Source: Candidatus Omnitrophota bacterium
GTDB lineage: Bacteria > Omnitrophota > Gorgyraeia > Zapsychrales > Zapsychraceae
DNA length: 64,000 nt
Reading direction: 5' to 3'
Assembly (NCBI GenBank): GCA_003528115.1
Contig: DOGZ01000014.1
Location: forward strand, 66,466 to 130,465
Both the position numbers and the translations under genes were made by a program. Position 1 is the first letter of the stretch, and each line of letters opens with the position of its first letter. Under the pieces are notes generated by a model. That model was not told the DNA's origin, did no database searches, and saw nothing but the letters and a program-made list of their open reading frames with translations. Below are positions 5,428 through 58,040 of this stretch, piece by piece.

Positions 5428-5510
5428 CTTTTCCGCGCCACAATATTTTTTTACTTTTATGAAAGTCAGTCTGATTTAAGAAATACGGACTTTCGCGAAT
5501 GGGAGAAAGA

Positions 5511-19915: not shown

Positions 19916-20031
19916 CGGCCGTTTTTTCCTTGCCGAGATCACCTGTAAATAATTTAGGTAACGCAGGCGCAACCAAGCTTATCGACCGGACGCGAAAATC
20001 CTGAAATAAAATCATGTCTTAATCCGATCCC

Positions 20032-20634
20032 ATGAATCCATCGCCCTCGTATCTTTCCGAACCGGATGTCCAACTGATGCTGGAATTTCAGGCGGGGCGT
20101 AAAGACTCTTTTGAAACTCTGCTGCGAAAGTATTATCCCCGTTTGTTAAATTTTATTTATCGTTTTGTCGGGAACCGCGAGGCGGCCGAAGATCTCACGC
20201 AGGAGGTCTTTATCAAGGTGTACCAGGGCGCGTCTGGGTATCAGCCGCACGCTCAATTTAAAACCTGGCTTTACACCATTGCCCGGAACATAAGTCTGAA
20301 TGCGTTGAGGAAGAACAAAAACTCAGGTTTTTCCCTGGATGAGGACATTGATTGTGAAGGGGATTCTCTTAAGCGGCAACTGCCGGATACGCGAAATTTG
20401 AATCCGAAAGAAGAGTTGGTTCAAAAGGAAACCGCCCGGGTGGTTCAGGAAGCCATCCAGGCCTTACCGGAAAATCAGCGCTTGGCGGTTATCCTGCGCC
20501 GGTATGAAGAGTTTTCCTACGAAGAGATCGCGAAAACCATGAATGTGTCGGTGGAGGCCGTTAAGTCCATTTTAAACAGGGCCAAAGAGAATTTGAAAAA
20601 AAGTTTGGCAGGGTATTGTTCTCATGGTTACTGA
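20032..20634 (+). CDS. ECF (sigma-70 family group 4) RNA polymerase sigma factor
   Basis: 200 aa; region 2 (DLTQEVFIKVY) and region 4 HTH (YEEIAKTMNVSVEAVKS). Confidence 0.85.
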   Translation: MNPSPSYLSEPDVQLMLEFQAGRKDSFETLLRKYYPRLLNFIYRFVGNREAAEDLTQEVFIKVYQGASGYQPHAQFKTWLYTIARNISLNALRKNKNSGFSLDEDIDCEGDSLKRQLPDTRNLNPKEELVQKETARVVQEAIQALPENQRLAVILRRYEEFSYEEIAKTMNVSVEAVKSILNRAKENLKKSLAGYCSHGY

Positions 20635-39214: not shown

Positions 39215-41506
39215 ATGGTGAGAAATATTTCATTCCTTATAGGACTTTCGCGTTTGGCGATCTGCTTCGTTGCAACCTTCTGTGCTTGCTCAGCGTACGG
39301 ACACTGTACGCCGCGCGGAGTTTATCCCGAGCTTTTCTCGGGACTCCTCGGTTGCGCCTCGAATTTCATCCAAACGCGAAAGTCCTACCTTAGAACGATA
39401 TCCGTTTTTTTCTTCGGTTTATCAATTTTTTTGTCGATTTTCCTGACGGGACACGCGTGGGCCCAATCTCCTAAAGAGTCTGTTGAATTAAACGGCGATA
39501 CGGTCGAATATTCGGTCGACGGCAATAAGGTAACGGCACAAGGAAACGTGGAGGTTGTTTATCAAGAGGTGCGGCTTATGTGTGATAGCGTGGAATTCTC
39601 CCGAGACACAAAGATGGCGTATGCCCAAGGCAATGTCCGTTTGGTGACAGGCCAGGGAGAGATCTCCGGCGATCGCATGGTCTTTAATTTTGAAACCATG
39701 AGCGGTGATTTTAACGGGGCGAAGATTTTTTCCAAGCCTTATTTCGGGCAAGCTAAAAAGATTTCTAAAAAGGAAGGCAACGAGATTGATCTGATTGAGG
39801 GCCATATGACCACCTGCGACCATGATAAACCGCATTTTAAAATGGTTTCCCGCAAAATAGAGATTTATCCGGGAGAAAAGATGGTTGCCCGTCGCAGCAA
39901 ACTGGTGTTAGGTAAGGTCCCGTTATTGTACCTCCCTAGGTTAACTCAGCGATTGGACGGAAAAAAGCCCCTGGTTGTTTTTACGCCGGGGTACAATAAA
40001 GAATGGGGGATGTTTGTTCTCTCCAAGACGTTTTTTCACATTAATGATAACCTCAAGGGATTTATCCGCGTCGATGCCAGGGAAAAAAGAGATGTGGCGG
40101 AAGGATTGGATCTTGAATATAAATCACCGAAGACGGGAAGCGGCCTTATCCGGACATACTACATGAATGAACGCAGGATCTCCGCCAAACGTTTTTATAA
40201 GGAACGCCCCACTCCGACCATCGAGAGGGAACGATTTAAAGCCGAATGGCGTCATAAGTGGAAGATCGATGACAATACCAATGCCATTTTACAGTATTAT
40301 AAATTAAGTGATAAAACACTTTTGAAGGAATATTTTGAAAGAGAGTTTGAGAAAGACAGCGCCCCGCAAACGTACTTTTTGTTAACGAGAAATTTGCCCA
40401 AAGGGACGTTCAGTTTCAGGACGGATGCCAGGGTTAACCGTTTTGAATCGGCGGTCGAGCGCCTCCCGGAAGTGCGCTACGATCTTTCAAATGAGAAAAT
40501 AGGGGAAACGGGGTTATATGTTAAAGATACGACGACCTTTTCTAATTTAACCTCCAAGACAGCCTCTCCCAGCGAAATCCGCAAAAAGACCCTGCGTCTT
40601 GACACGGAAAATGAGATTTCGTACCCCTTTAAGTTAGGATTTGTCGAATTGAAACCTTTTGTCGGGGGCCGAGAGACGTTTTACAGCAGGACGATCGATC
40701 CGGCGGAATACAACTCGATCCGTGGGATCTTCCGGACGGGATCAAGCCTGAGTACGAAATTTTACCGCCTTTGGGAAACCGAAACAGATGTCTGGGGCAT
40801 GGATATTCATCGTTTAAGACACATCGTGACGCCGACGGTATCGTATGTTTTTCAGGGGGACCCCACGATTCCGTCCTCCCATTTGGATTCCTTCGACAGT
40901 ATAGATTCTTTAAGTAATCAGCACTTCATTAATTTTTCTATTGAAAATAAATTGCAGACAAAAAGAGGGGGCGAGACGGTGGAATTGCTGCGCGCCATCC
41001 TAGGCACAGATTTCCATCTGAAGGAAGAGTCTACCAAGGGAGGTTTTGGAACCATAACTTCTGATATTGATTTCCGGCCCAAGGATTGGCTGACCTTGTA
41101 TTTTGACGCGGGTTATGATACAACAACGGATCGTTTAAGCACGGCCAACTTCGATTTGTATATTAACGGCAAAGACGACCGCTGGTCTTATGGCGTGGGG
41201 AAGAGGTTCAACTCAAATGCCGACGATCAACTGACCCAGGAATTAAAGTGGAAGATTAATCCCAAGTGGGCTTTGCGATGGTATCAGAGGTTTGATGTGG
41301 AGGCGGGTATTTTAAAAGAACAGGAATACACGATCCGACGCGATCTGCATGAATGGTTGATGGATATCAGCTTTAATGAAACGCGGGATGAGGGAGACGA
41401 AATCTGGATTATCTTTACACTCAAAGCTTTCCCGGATATCGCGCTGGACGTGGGCTCAGGGTTTAATGAACGCAAAGCGGGATCCCAGAGTGAAGATCGA
41501 CCGTAG
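39215..41506 (+). CDS. lptD: LPS-assembly protein LptD (OstA family); 5' end/start uncertain
   Basis: ~760 aa OstA-like organisation (N-terminal OstA domain plus large beta-barrel); the ORF's first ~60 codons are encoded by the MITE copy, so the true start is probably downstream, after ~39390. Confidence 0.7.
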   Translation: MVRNISFLIGLSRLAICFVATFCACSAYGHCTPRGVYPELFSGLLGCASNFIQTRKSYLRTISVFFFGLSIFLSIFLTGHAWAQSPKESVELNGDTVEYSVDGNKVTAQGNVEVVYQEVRLMCDSVEFSRDTKMAYAQGNVRLVTGQGEISGDRMVFNFETMSGDFNGAKIFSKPYFGQAKKISKKEGNEIDLIEGHMTTCDHDKPHFKMVSRKIEIYPGEKMVARRSKLVLGKVPLLYLPRLTQRLDGKKPLVVFTPGYNKEWGMFVLSKTFFHINDNLKGFIRVDAREKRDVAEGLDLEYKSPKTGSGLIRTYYMNERRISAKRFYKERPTPTIERERFKAEWRHKWKIDDNTNAILQYYKLSDKTLLKEYFEREFEKDSAPQTYFLLTRNLPKGTFSFRTDARVNRFESAVERLPEVRYDLSNEKIGETGLYVKDTTTFSNLTSKTASPSEIRKKTLRLDTENEISYPFKLGFVELKPFVGGRETFYSRTIDPAEYNSIRGIFRTGSSLSTKFYRLWETETDVWGMDIHRLRHIVTPTVSYVFQGDPTIPSSHLDSFDSIDSLSNQHFINFSIENKLQTKRGGETVELLRAILGTDFHLKEESTKGGFGTITSDIDFRPKDWLTLYFDAGYDTTTDRLSTANFDLYINGKDDRWSYGVGKRFNSNADDQLTQELKWKINPKWALRWYQRFDVEAGILKEQEYTIRRDLHEWLMDISFNETRDEGDEIWIIFTLKAFPDIALDVGSGFNERKAGSQSEDRP
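39240..39387 (+). repeat. MITE-like inverted-repeat element, copy A (terminal IR AGGACTTTCGCGTTTGG / CCAAACGCGAAAGTCCT)
   Basis: Near-identical second copy at 54780-54903; flanked by T...A; contains nested palindromes; copy A carries an extra ~24-bp hairpin insert. Confidence 0.75.
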
Positions 41507-49515: not shown

Positions 49516-49614
49516 GTTCCCATAGCGGCAAATGAGGTTCAAGCAAAGGATGAGGCGAAGGACAACGCCTTGACGTTATGTCGTCAAGGTCGGCCACCGG
49601 CGTGAGGTGTGAGG

Positions 49615-49733
49615 TTGCAATTGTCGCCCGCGGGAGAGAATTGTAGTGTAAAAGGCGGCCCAGGATTTCTTTAAAAGAAGGCGTTGAGAAAACAGTCGCG
49701 TGGTTTAAAGAGGAAGTCAAACATCAGAAGCGT
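49615..49733 (+). repeat. direct repeat copy 2 (junction module plus fcl 3'-end duplicate)
   Basis: 49654-49733 is ~99% identical to 48299-48378; 49615-49658 is similar to 51367-51410. Confidence 0.85.
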
Positions 49734-51222: not shown

Positions 51223-51366
51223 ACAATAGCACATCTTAACGTGGTAATGAATGTGGTAATATCAAGGGGTGCCGGAGAAGACCGTTGCCTGCCCTGAGTG
51301 AACGAAGTATGTCGATGGGGTACAATCCTAATGAAGGAGGGTGTCCTGGGAATTCTGGGAATGAGT

Positions 51367-51469
51367 TTGCAATTGTCGCCCGCGGAAGAGAATTGCAGAG
51401 TAAAATGCGGCGAGGTTTCTGTAAAAGAAGGCGTTGAGAAAACAGTCGCGTGGTTTAAAGAGAAAGTCA
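51367..51469 (+). repeat. direct repeat copy 3 (junction module plus diverged fcl 3'-end remnant) upstream of the epimerase gene
   Basis: TTGCAATTGTCGCCCGCGG... shared with copy 2; TAAAAGAAGGCGTTGAGAAAACAGTCGCGTGGTTTAAAGAG shared with the fcl 3' end. Confidence 0.8.
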
Positions 51470-51487
51470 ACAGACAGGAGAGTGTTC

Positions 51488-54029: not shown

Positions 54030-54767
54030 TTGAATTTAGAAAATGTTGATGCCGTTGTCCTCTGCGGGGGGCTTGGGAAAAGATTAAGAAGTGTTACCGG
54101 AGACAATCCAAAGGTTATGGCCGCGGTCGAGGGCAGGCCTTTTCTGGATGTCCTCATGGAGTATTTAGCGCGGCAGGGATTCAAACGGGTCATATTATGC
54201 ACCGGTTATCAAGCCGATCAGATTGAAGCGTATTACCGGCAAAACACCCACGGACTGCGTTTTGAGTTCTCCAGAGAAGAAGAACCTTTGGGGACGGGAG
54301 GGGCGGTAAGAAACGCCCGATGTTTGATTCAAAGTAGTCCTTTCGTTGTTTTAAATGGGGATTCATTTTGCGCGGTGAATTACCGCGCTCTGGGGGAGTT
54401 TCATCAATCCCGAAAAGCCCTGGCTTCTGTGGTTGTCTCGAAGGCCGAGGATCATAGGGATTACGGGGGCATTGTCCTTGATGAAACCGGCAGGATTGTC
54501 CGTTTCCTCGAGAAGAATAACCCGGTTCTGTCCGGCGGAAAGAAGACAGCGGACGAGGTCTCCTGCGTCAATGCCGGGATTTATTGTTTTAATGACGAAA
54601 TTTTTTCCTTCATGCCCAAAGCACGGACCTTTTCTTTGGAATATGATTTTTTCCCAGGTCTTGTACGACATCTTTTTTTTGGTTTTCTGGTGGAGGAGGC
54701 CTTCTTGGACATTGGCACGCCGGAAAGATATCAGCAGGCCTTGGCAAAAATGAAAAGACCGGTTTAA
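54030..54767 (+). CDS. sugar-1-phosphate nucleotidyltransferase (HddC / GDP-heptose-type)
   Basis: TTG start; nucleotide-binding motif VVLCGGLGKRLRSVTGDNPKVM typical of the NTP_transferase family. Confidence 0.75.
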   Translation: MNLENVDAVVLCGGLGKRLRSVTGDNPKVMAAVEGRPFLDVLMEYLARQGFKRVILCTGYQADQIEAYYRQNTHGLRFEFSREEEPLGTGGAVRNARCLIQSSPFVVLNGDSFCAVNYRALGEFHQSRKALASVVVSKAEDHRDYGGIVLDETGRIVRFLEKNNPVLSGGKKTADEVSCVNAGIYCFNDEIFSFMPKARTFSLEYDFFPGLVRHLFFGFLVEEAFLDIGTPERYQQALAKMKRPV

Positions 54768-54779
54768 AATAAATTAAAG

Positions 54780-54903
54780 TAGGATTTTCGCGTTTGGCGA
54801 TCTGCTTCGTTGCAACCTTCTGTGCTTGCTCAGCGTACACAACAGTACGCCTCGCTTCGCTCCTCGGTTGCGCCTCGCATTTCATCCAAACGTGAAAGTC
54901 CTA
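54780..54903 (+). repeat. MITE-like inverted-repeat element, copy B
   Basis: ~90% identical to 39240-39387 apart from a ~24-bp indel; same orientation; intergenic, immediately 5' of the GT2 gene. Confidence 0.75.
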
Positions 54904-54916
54904 TAAAAAAAAGGAA

Positions 54917-55714
54917 ATGGTTTTGCGTTCTCAGCAGGAGAAACAACGCGTGGAAGATATTATCGTCAGGAACAAGATGACGGCTTACAGTCTTTCGGTG
55001 GTGATTCCGGTTTATAATGAAGAAGACTGTATTGAAGAGACGCTGGCGAAGATTCAGGAGTTCTTGAACGTCCGTTTCCAGGATTATGAGATCCTTGTCG
55101 TGGATGACGGCAGTGATGACGGGACGTATTTAAAAGTCAAAGCCTTGGCCGAGAAAAACAAACGCATCCAATTGTTCAAGAACGATAGAAACAGCGGTAA
55201 GGGATTTAGCGTCAAAAGGGGCATGCTGGCGGCCACGTCGGACTTTGTTTTGTTCATGGACGCGGACTGCTCAACCCCGGTTGAAGAAATTATGAAATTT
55301 GTGCCGTATTTCTCCCAAGACATCGATATCCTGCTGGGTTCCAGAGTCTTGAAAGAGTCTAACGTCCTTAAGAGGCAAGGGGTTATCCGCAGGAGCTTGG
55401 GTCGGTTGTTTAATTGCCTTATTCAGATATTTTTATTCCAAGGCGTCCAGGATACGCAATGCGGGTTTAAGTGTTTTAAAAGACAGGCCGCCCAGAAATT
55501 ATTTAAACTCCAAACGATTCAGCGGTATTGTTTTGACGCCGAGATTCTTTTCTTGGCCAGAAAACGGAACTGTACCATTAAAGAAATTCCGATCACCTGG
55601 GTCAACAGAAAGAATTCAAGATTGGGAATTATAAAAGACGCCCCGAAAATGCTTTCCGATTTATTAAAGATCCGGTGGAATGATTGGAAGGGTATATATG
55701 CGGATTCCCGCTAA
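54917..55714 (+). CDS. family 2 glycosyltransferase (polyprenol-phosphate sugar transferase, DPM1/ArnC-like)
   Basis: SVVIPVYNEEDCI...VVDDGSDDGT GT2 signature with DAD motif (FMDADCS). Confidence 0.8.
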   Translation: MVLRSQQEKQRVEDIIVRNKMTAYSLSVVIPVYNEEDCIEETLAKIQEFLNVRFQDYEILVVDDGSDDGTYLKVKALAEKNKRIQLFKNDRNSGKGFSVKRGMLAATSDFVLFMDADCSTPVEEIMKFVPYFSQDIDILLGSRVLKESNVLKRQGVIRRSLGRLFNCLIQIFLFQGVQDTQCGFKCFKRQAAQKLFKLQTIQRYCFDAEILFLARKRNCTIKEIPITWVNRKNSRLGIIKDAPKMLSDLLKIRWNDWKGIYADSR

Positions 55715-56891: not shown

Positions 56892-57997
56892 CCATCAATT
56901 GCCGGTCGTTTATAAAAAAGAAATATACGGGAATTGGAAGGTATACCTACCATTTAGTTAAAAGCCTGAGCGAGATCGACACGCAGAATGAATATCAGTT
57001 ATACGCGAAAAAAGGCATTCTGAATCTCAACAAGCGCCTGCCGCATTTCGGCGTCAAGAATTTTATTATCAAGACGGATCGATTTAACAGAGGCATCGAA
57101 AAGTCTTTGGGAAAAGTCGATATTTACCATTCCCCCAGCCCTGATTCCCTGAATGTCAATAATGGAGCCAGAATCGTTGTGACGGTCCATGATCTGATTT
57201 TTAAAGCCTTTCCGCAGGGACACACGCAGAGAACGCTGGATGAGACAGAAAAACAGTTTACGAACATAGGGAAAATCGCCTCAAAGATTATTTGTTGTTC
57301 TCAAAATACGATTAACGATCTCAAGAAATATTTTCAAGTCCCTGAGGACAAAATCGCTTTAGTTTACCAGGGCGTCGACAAAAATTTGTTTTATCGTGTC
57401 GGCAAAGACGAAGAGCCGACAGCCGCTAAAATGATCAGGGCCAGAGGCCTGAAAGAGCCGTTTGTTTTGTCCGTCGGGACTATTGAGCCGCGGAAGAACC
57501 TGGAAAATCTTCTTCATGCCTTTGACAAATTAAGGACGAGAAATCAATTTAAGGGAAAATTGGTTGTGATCGGCATGAAGGGATGGATGAGCGACGGGAT
57601 TGAAGGCCTCATCCGTAAGCTTGAGTTGAAGAATCATGTGATCTTTTTAGGATATCTCTCGGACCAGGAACTGCGGTATTTTTATAACAAGGCGGAGGCT
57701 TTTGTCTTTCCGTCTTTTTACGAGGGATTCGGGTTCCCTATTGTAGAGGCCTTTGCCTGCGGGGCACCCGTGGTCACTTCGAACGTTTCTTCCTGCCCCG
57801 AGGTCGCTCGGGACGCCGCCCTGATCGTCGATCCTTACCGGCCCGAAGATATTGCCGGGGCCATTGCCCGGATCGTGAAAGATTCTTCCCTTCGACAGAC
57901 TTTAAGGCAAAAAGGGTTTAAAAGAGCGCAAGATTTCAATTTCCGCAAGACAGCCGAGGAGACATTGAAAGTTTATCAAGAGGTTTACCGGACGTGA
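56882..57997 (+). CDS. family 4 glycosyltransferase (GT-B)
   Basis: C-terminal GT4 motif EGFGFPIVEAFACGAPVV. Confidence 0.8.
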   Translation: MHIAINCRSFIKKKYTGIGRYTYHLVKSLSEIDTQNEYQLYAKKGILNLNKRLPHFGVKNFIIKTDRFNRGIEKSLGKVDIYHSPSPDSLNVNNGARIVVTVHDLIFKAFPQGHTQRTLDETEKQFTNIGKIASKIICCSQNTINDLKKYFQVPEDKIALVYQGVDKNLFYRVGKDEEPTAAKMIRARGLKEPFVLSVGTIEPRKNLENLLHAFDKLRTRNQFKGKLVVIGMKGWMSDGIEGLIRKLELKNHVIFLGYLSDQELRYFYNKAEAFVFPSFYEGFGFPIVEAFACGAPVVTSNVSSCPEVARDAALIVDPYRPEDIAGAIARIVKDSSLRQTLRQKGFKRAQDFNFRKTAEETLKVYQEVYRT

Positions 57998-58040
57998 AAG
58001 TCCTGAGATTAAGAGTAAAGGGCTGAAGCACGGACTGACC

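Follow-up and report, generated by a model that had tools for sequence, protein, structure and literature searches.

The two palindromic repeats in the DNA analysed here, a 64,000-nt stretch (the window, to whose positions all coordinates refer) from a groundwater bacterium of Rifle and related sites, given as Omnitrophica WOR_2 bacterium GWA2_45_18 / GWC2_45_7, are best read as copies of a non-autonomous DNA transposon, a miniature inverted-repeat transposable element (MITE), one of which (copy A) is read through in the leader of lptD. We put the probability of this reading at about 0.85. The MITE family itself is real and apparently undescribed. A preliminary description of the window had placed the repeats at 39240–39387 (copy A) and 54780–54903 (copy B) and had considered them MITE-like; both are present there, and their mobile character is borne out by inverted termini, 5-bp target-site duplications (TSDs), copies at unrelated loci in many genomes and the spread of internally deleted derivatives. 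Of particular interest are the TSD-delimited, in-frame insertion in lptD, the occurrence of one terminal sequence across lineages, and an unexplained covariation in the hairpin that the elements form.

Each copy is bounded by terminal inverted repeats (TIRs) of 18 bp; the preliminary description had recognized these repeats but gave their length as ~17 bp, leaving out an outer T/A pair that belongs to the TIR. The TIRs of copy A are perfect over 18 bp, and those of copy B differ by one transition per arm. Both pairs of nested internal palindromes named earlier were found (GCGTAC/GTACGC and GTTGCAACC/GGTTGCGCC). The two copies align end to end, except for a segment of ~24 nt seen only in copy A and a few differences in the apical loop, and BLAST gives 98% identity over a 59-nt block and 95% over a 44-nt block. 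The ~24-bp hairpin insertion described for copy A is there, but it is not private to that copy: the 148-nt extra-hairpin form represents a subfamily, found also at four other loci (L007, L095, L096, L106). With up to 3 mismatches, the 17-mer TIR core has 7 matches in the window, where 0.17 would be expected, and a profile search identified A and B as its only full copies. When folded, as had been proposed earlier, each forms a single long hairpin far more stable than its shuffled versions (copy A, −70.7 kcal/mol, z = −7.2; copy B, −52.8 kcal/mol, z = −7.4), with no shuffle equally stable.

A sign of transposition lies directly outside the TIRs. Copies had been described as flanked by T...A, which would suit a TA-type target duplication; that T/A is the outermost TIR pair, and the actual direct repeats are 5 bp long. 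Among 54 non-redundant elements with paired TIRs from the window, genomes and metagenomes (partner TIR with 0–3 mismatches), 28 have perfect 5-bp TSDs and 13 more agree at four of five positions, while offsetting the right-hand repeat by 1 or 2 nt left only 0–2 perfect matches. The TSD sequences are variable and AT-rich, the insertion-site regions are 70–97% A+T with no strict consensus, and the outermost (18th) TIR pair itself varies between copies (T, C, A or G). A similar left flank, AAATATTTCA(T), was seen at several independent insertions (window 39223–39239, and the flanks of L007, L010 and L033); it may be a preferred target motif beyond AT-richness, or a product of chance in AT-rich gene starts. 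We envisage a transposase, supplied in trans, that would recognize the TIRs (consensus TAGGACTTTCGCGTTTGG) bounding the imperfect long hairpin, and insertion at AT-rich sites by a 5-bp staggered cut that would generate the 5-bp TSDs.

A scan of one genome per species (GTDB representatives) with the query TAGGAYTTTCRCGTTTGG returned 56 TIR loci, a total that by our own estimate is near chance expectation. Unlike a chance spread, the matches cluster in particular metagenome-assembled genomes (MAGs), and about 30 of the 56 have a second, inverted TIR 58–230 nt away. TIR loci were found on seven contigs of one MAG labelled 'Planctomycetales' (a label that was not confirmed, its loci being without good marker genes), on two contigs of Omnitrophota nzgw302, and in many MAGs of the candidate phyla radiation (CPR/Patescibacteria) belonging to Kuenenbacteria, Magasanikbacteria, Spechtbacteria, Uhrbacteria, Yanofskybacteria, Doudnabacteria, Moraniibacteriota and Saccharibacteria; the Moraniibacteriota contigs concerned are 204 and 635 kb long. 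The remaining single matches, among them those in Bradyrhizobium and Paenibacillus, are probably due to chance. A second scan, of metagenomes with the exact 18-mer TIR, gave 52 loci, in about 33 of which the TIR has a partner (up to 3 mismatches allowed). Most unpaired loci lie at contig ends or face a decayed partner TIR; many loci at contig ends are to be expected, because repeats break assemblies. Eleven contigs of one metagenome carry TIR loci, and further copies 91–98% identical occur on contigs from the sample of the window's organism (L086, L096, L106, L110; also L095 and L102), possibly parts of its own genome.

The elements range from 58 to 232 nt, and their reading frames encode short peptides only. 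A 58-nt internally deleted derivative occupies three different sites in one MAG (L010, L026, L048), and several palindromic cores with no relation to one another lie between copies of the same 18-bp TIR. These derivatives and unrelated cores, with the TIRs and 5-bp TSDs, give the family the features by which MITEs are defined, all but an autonomous partner element: small size, no transposase open reading frame (ORF), inverted termini, duplications of fixed length and multiple unrelated loci. At L005, L018, L038, L043, L046, L079, L104 and L105 (also L021, L050 and L065), the core under this TIR is one of two other widespread palindromes, of the types GTCATTGCGAG...GAAGCAATC and GTCATTCC...GGAATC.

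Copy A had been placed upstream of lptD, but it lies inside the lptD ORF (Table 1), and gene callers in several assemblies also call lptD through it. It was inserted 24 nt downstream of the ATG at 39215, separating codon 8 of the signal peptide from codon 9, and together with one TSD it accounts for 153 nt, or 51 sense codons. LptD homologues of 53–64% identity have an ordinary signal peptide followed by the conserved SVELNGDTVEYS, and the 51 residues are absent from them. Removal of the 153 nt yields ATG GTG AGA AAT ATT TCA TTC CTT AGA ACG ATA TCC..., whose product, MVRNISFLRTISVFFFGLSIFLSIFLTGHAWA joined directly to QSPKESVELNGD, is a textbook Sec signal peptide; the restored cleavage site is AWA↓Q, and relatives have SFA↓Q, AIA↓Q or CWA↓Q. 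Excision of 146 or 148 nt was also considered and rejected, as it leaves no usable start codon. Because only removal of 153 nt restores the gene, and an in-frame TAG directly precedes the ATG at 39215, the ancestral start was either this ATG or the GTG at 39218.

After the insertion, the canonical in-frame starts are the original ATG/GTG, a TTG in the left TIR and a TTG in the middle of the hydrophobic core, and there are no others. Initiation at the last of these leaves MSIFLTGHAWA, which is too short for a signal. With no other suitable in-frame start, the LptD precursor, if made, almost certainly includes element-encoded residues, and it is most likely translated through copy A; the insertion may be tolerated since the leader would be cleaved off. 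Two of the three forward frames of the copy A subfamily are free of stops, so that it is not unlikely for an insertion to stay cleanly in frame. The closest relatives of copy A, L095 and L096, have 147 nt; copy A has one more, in the apical loop, and only 148 + 5 nt keeps the frame; as a single case (n = 1), this is weak evidence that the frame mattered. The lptD DNA of a sister MAG is identical, and there LptD (P0142) is annotated from an internal TTG with a length of 691 residues. The same DNA has thus been given different starts in public records (window 39431–41506 versus 39215–41506; L123): OGW96649.1 and HBR14465.1 begin at the ATG before the element (763 residues), whereas the TTG start of OGX19750.1 (691 residues) would drop the export signal. 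This is an annotation trap, in that public LptD sequences either start 72 residues late or carry 51 element-encoded residues.

The lptD case is not the only one of its kind. Peptides from the three open frames of the element were searched against 5.8 billion proteins, and nine proteins were found. In three other exported proteins, P0128 (a TPR/SPOR protein), P0125 and P0124 (a prepilin), the element lies in an N-terminal leader before a hydrophobic segment or prepilin cleavage motif; the P0128 leader reads MINDNFYKI, then the element, then KINLILLLWAAPGLCAFS, and a duplicated 'KI' marks the TSD. Elsewhere it lies between two transmembrane segments (P0122), lengthens the C-terminus of RpoN (P0127), or, in reverse orientation, provides an ATG that results in a spurious N-terminal extension (P0126, P0129); at L007 it directly adjoins the start codon of a pseudopilin gene. 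When the 51 LptD residues were compared with 1.84 billion cluster representatives, 11 proteins were returned, of which one was a real match and ten were compositional, and the idea that the element peptide serves as a protein module was rejected on that count. In-frame residence is occasional rather than a trait of the family. Its recurrence in cleaved leaders fits a combination of AT-rich target preference and purifying selection that would spare the mature protein; AT-rich targets suit leaders because Lys, Asn and Ile codons abound in n-regions. The N-terminal extension of another LptD homologue, P0054 (SLRGT..RRSNL..EIASH), appears to resemble peptides encoded by palindromic repeats of the other core types under this TIR.

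Copy B is intergenic, between the stop codon of an upstream nucleotidyltransferase gene at 54767 and the first ATG of a downstream GT2 gene at 54917, although the ATG at 54977, which is better placed and has an AGGA motif, is the more likely start of the latter. Copy B appears to have landed in a short spacer between two sugar-metabolism genes and is presumably a passive passenger of the polycistronic transcript, in the form of a stable stem-loop. The preliminary description had raised the possibility of a mobile promoter or terminator; this found no support, since consensus scans revealed neither kind of site in or directly after either copy, and both orientations occur. No intrinsic-terminator-like site was detected at either copy in these scans, and the sole promoter-like match near them (54741–54770) is just upstream of copy B, not inside it. 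A survey of 29 related copies placed them 0–30 nt from neighbouring ORFs, most of them intergenic; where both neighbours agree in direction, 12 copies are co-oriented and 7 anti-oriented. It had also been claimed that each window copy sits immediately 5' of an envelope-biogenesis gene. Copy A is within the lptD coding sequence, and across the family the neighbours are functionally unrelated (nusG/rplK, pilins, an ABC ATPase, rpoN, histidine kinases). Because of these neighbours elsewhere, and because the window itself is dense in envelope and sugar genes, the link to envelope biogenesis looks coincidental. At five loci (L110, L019, L100, L029, L088), the upstream ORF as called stops at the TAG on the very tip of the TIR; here the insertion has apparently cut off the 3' end of a gene and provided another stop codon.

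Whether the hairpin does more than accompany the TIRs was addressed with an alignment of 29 same-core copies from Omnitrophota, 'Planctomycetales'-labelled and CPR MAGs. RNAalifold predicted 28 pairs, 14 with compensatory changes; with the apical stem added by hand there are 35 pairs, 94% of cells are paired, and compensatory double changes occur in 21 of the 35 (97 cells), a level reached by none of 500 shuffles. Sliding the partner by 1–3 columns lowers pairing to 24–47%. Hairpins are also formed by the interiors of elements whose cores are unrelated (median z −3.9; 33 of 56 below −3). One could suppose that the elements arose as MITEs but that their hairpin has a single-stranded function at the level of host or element, either as an mRNA-stabilizing or translation-modulating stem-loop in polycistronic transcripts or as a mobilization structure, and that the window copies influence expression of lptD and the GT2 operon. 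Along with the covariation and the hairpins in unrelated cores, the position of copies 0–30 nt from gene ends, where they are almost certainly transcribed, and the promoter-like site just upstream of copy B speak for this. We nevertheless consider it unlikely. The two strands fold alike (−52.8 versus −55.1 kcal/mol for copy B, −70.7 versus −74.2 kcal/mol for copy A), and by our tally G-U and A-C mismatches in the 28 outer and middle stem pairs are balanced, at 16 versus 15; there is therefore no strand-specific RNA signal. The reverse strand of the interiors is often the more stable one, but this advantage is gone in whole elements and may be inherited, and no weight was put on it. Both orientations occur, no terminator-like tail was found, and DNA-level conversion from arm to arm could produce covariation without selection. 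The hairpin signal fits a palindrome in DNA, or a structure that can serve on either strand, and its covariation could stem from selection (for mobilization, or for harmless passage through transcripts) or from arm-to-arm conversion.

A structured cis-regulatory RNA, leader- or riboswitch-like and dedicated to envelope-biogenesis genes, was suggested by the conserved, covarying structure and by the fact that each window copy lies at the 5' end of an envelope-related gene and points the same way as that gene. In a window with all its genes on the + strand and many of them for envelope and sugar functions, however, that association is expected by chance, and elsewhere the neighbours are unrelated and the orientation varies; moreover, the 5-bp TSDs show transposition, copy A is within coding sequence, and Rfam has no match at the gathering threshold or at E ≤ 1, so that this explanation is largely refuted and has very little probability left. 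Strongly palindromic, covarying stems would likewise suit recognition of a DNA hairpin by a single-strand (Y1/HUH) system, as in repetitive extragenic palindromes (REPs) and bacterial interspersed mosaic elements (BIMEs), mobilized by REP-associated tyrosine transposases (RAYTs), or in palindromes associated with IS200/IS605. Such elements are without TSDs or long TIRs, whereas 18-bp TIRs and 5-bp TSDs are found here, lengths of 58–230 nt exceed the 20–40 nt of REPs, and no tnpA, RAYT or TnpB gene lies nearby, which makes this origin slightly more remote still. Finally, the preliminary description had allowed that, if no further copies turned up and the inverted termini were not conserved, a local duplication would be indicated. 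Only two full copies are present in the 64-kb window, with none in an extra 20 kb of flanking sequence, as a local duplication or chance palindrome would have it; that explanation is clearly refuted by the dozens of copies that numerous genomes and metagenomes contain at unrelated loci, every one with a TSD of its own.

The MITE reading has points that weigh against it. The stem covariation exceeds what a purely selfish, TIR-dependent element would need. The present LptD precursor has two hydrophobic segments, one element-encoded (residues 5–29) and one original (residues 59–80), and the pair could disturb export; one public annotation, moreover, starts LptD at the TTG inside the signal peptide. 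No empty-site lptD allele (ATGGTGAGAAATATTTCATTCCTTAGAACG) was found, the 90% LptD cluster having 3 members, and because the DNA of the sister MAG is identical, the insertion event in lptD rests on the TSD and on distant homologues. Lastly, no autonomous element or transposase with these TIRs was detected in the 120 loci examined. That search covered partner TIRs at up to 3–4 mismatches in all loci, with ORF and Pfam checks beside single TIRs, where a LexA-methylase fusion and histidine kinases were encountered but no transposase. Four contigs with different flanks (L063 1974–2096, L067 5214–5331, L072 1858–1976, L085 3632–3697) break off within one and the same element of over 120 nt (TAGGACTTTCGCGTTTGGCCGTTTTCTAGCC...ATGCAACAA), which starts with a TIR, continues past it as ...CCGTTTTCTAGCCAAAACGCC...ACCACTATGCAACAA, and reaches no second TIR. 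This could be one end of a full-length insertion sequence (IS) with this TIR, and is the best lead to a parent. Three scans of viral contigs gave chance matches only, and plasmid and phage collections gave no match. Rfam yielded no match at the gathering threshold over the window and no relevant match at E ≤ 1 around the copies; in a full-text literature search, the TIR string occurred in no indexed paper and no paper linked MITEs with Omnitrophica.

Among described elements, the closest likeness is to the bacterial MITEs (Correia/NEMIS of Neisseria, ERIC/IRU, Nezha and Chunjie; reviewed in PMC10969869). Like them, the present elements are small and multi-copy, lack a transposase gene, have TIRs and TSDs, target AT-rich gene boundaries, fold as a long hairpin and are occasionally fused to neighbouring ORFs. 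They differ from known MITEs in having no sequence match to them, in one 18-bp TIR being common to several unrelated palindromic cores, and in hosts that span CPR/Patescibacteria, Omnitrophota and MAGs labelled Planctomycetales. Their 5-bp TSD also sets them apart from Correia- and ERIC-type elements, where it is TA; a MITE of the IS630/Tc1-mariner type, such as Correia, was rejected, the repeats here being variable and 5 bp long rather than a TA duplication. A 5-bp TSD, bounding inverted repeats and lack of autonomy are shared with the miniature elements derived from Tn3 (TIMEs) and with other IS families that duplicate 5 bp. Inverted repeats of the Tn3 family are ~38 bp long and begin GGGG, and the ends of IS2 and IS1202 begin TG or TGT. 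To our knowledge, the TAGGAC... terminus fits no IS family that duplicates 5 bp, and the elements are not assigned to a family. As palindromic repeats that lie close-packed between genes, they also recall REP/BIME sequences and integron attC sites. REPs are 20–40 nt long with GTAG/CGTC heads; attC sites are marked by RYYYAAC/GTTRRRY cores and all point the same way within a cassette array; neither has a TSD. RAYT-mobilized REP/BIME sequences were rejected on length (58–230 nt), the TAGGAC head, the 5-bp TSDs and the lack of a RAYT gene among those seen; IS200/IS605-derived palindromes, which have subterminal hairpins without TIRs or TSDs, on the presence of both; and attC sites on termini that by inspection misfit their cores, scattered copies in both orientations, and TSDs.

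The Rickettsia palindromic elements (RPEs; Ogata et al. 2000, 2002), as far as the account of them in PMC10969869 goes, are in-frame residents of protein-coding genes. Similarly, the elements described here are palindromic, selfish and ~100–150 bp long, and can lie in frame within a gene without destroying the protein, as in lptD, P0122, P0124, P0125 and P0128. Unlike RPEs as portrayed there, most copies are intergenic rather than predominantly in frame, the in-frame cases cluster in cleaved N-terminal leaders and not in mature domains, and clear TIRs and TSDs are present. This comparison is one of descriptions, between elements whose hosts and composition differ.

A broader interpretation, which we offer only tentatively and think improbable, is that a single 18-bp TIR mobilizes interchangeable palindromic cores across very distant, ultra-small groundwater lineages (CPR/Patescibacteria, Omnitrophota and MAGs labelled Planctomycetales), as an undescribed, 'leader-compatible' MITE superfamily whose hairpin is under real selection and whose autonomous partner is not to be seen in these streamlined genomes. 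If this were true, the transposase would act in trans and have its origin out of sight, in a rare IS, a phage or even a partner organism (host or episymbiont); AT-rich gene 5' ends would be preferred targets, elements within cleaved signal or prepilin leaders would persist in frame, and the export signals of envelope proteins such as LptD would be remodelled. Independently of that interpretation, lptD offers a clean and checkable case of a transposon insertion presumably tolerated, by way of a cleavable signal peptide, in an essential outer-membrane biogenesis gene, and a TIR common to CPR, Omnitrophota and other uncultivated lineages could indicate that genes, or at least a transposase, pass between them or are held in common. 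The mobile elements of groundwater nanobacteria are barely catalogued, and a catalogue of this family would improve the calling of gene starts and help to explain contig breaks in MAGs.

Table 1. Positions in the window of the element copies, their termini and duplications, the lptD gene and possible relics.
Feature	Position	Strand	Description
lptD ORF	39215..41506	+	763 codons; Pfam LptD; reads through copy A in frame without a stop
MITE copy A	39240..39387	+	148 nt; extra-hairpin subfamily; within lptD ORF
Left 18-bp TIR, copy A	39240..39257	+	TAGGACTTTCGCGTTTGG
Right 18-bp TIR, copy A	39370..39387	-	CCAAACGCGAAAGTCCTA; perfect reverse complement of left TIR
Left 5-bp TSD, copy A	39235..39239	.	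CCTTA
Right 5-bp TSD, copy A	39388..39392	.	CCTTA
Subfamily-specific insert, copy A	39316..39343	+	~24 nt; stem-loop CCCGAGCTTTTCTCGGG at 39326–39342
MITE copy B	54780..54903	+	124 nt; intergenic, nucleotidyltransferase gene / GT2 gene
Left TSD, copy B	54775..54779	.	TAAAG
Right TSD, copy B	54904..54908	.	TAAAA; 4/5 identity to left TSD
Probable decayed half-copy	19959..20002	-	variant TIR AGGATTTTCGCGTCCGG and ~27 nt of core-like sequence; nhmmer E = 0.36, weak
Solo TIR-like motif	5486..5502	+	CGGACTTTCGCGAATGG; just upstream of an ORF; possibly a relic
Solo TIR-like motif	57988..58004	-	AGGACTTTCACGTCCGG; overlaps stop codon of a GT4 gene; possibly a relic

Other traces of the family are present in and around the window (Table 1). 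The probable half-copy sits just upstream of an ORF at 20032. No further full copy was found in the 10-kb flank on either side of the window (20 kb in total). Approximately 5 kb upstream of the window, before tatA, lies another decayed half-copy (L121 4954–5029; ...CCTGACGCGAAAGTTTTTT; nhmmer E = 0.056), which suggests that old insertions erode in place.

The surroundings of the copies have features of their own. All gene-like ORFs of at least 150 codons are on the + strand over the 64 kb, as they are, except for one gene, in the flanking 20 kb; the gene-strand bias over window and flanks is extreme. P0075, a relative of the window LptD, is a protein of 1030 residues with ROK and LptD domains together; the ROK-lptD adjacency of the window is therefore conserved, and in this relative the two were called as a single ORF. 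Two direct repeats of ~111 nt, 91% identical, bracket a cation-efflux gene region at 49610–49720 and 51362–51470. In sequence they resemble the 3' end of an epimerase gene (...GVEKTVAWFKE...), which suggests a gene end duplicated by insertion or rearrangement near the AbiEii and cation-efflux genes.

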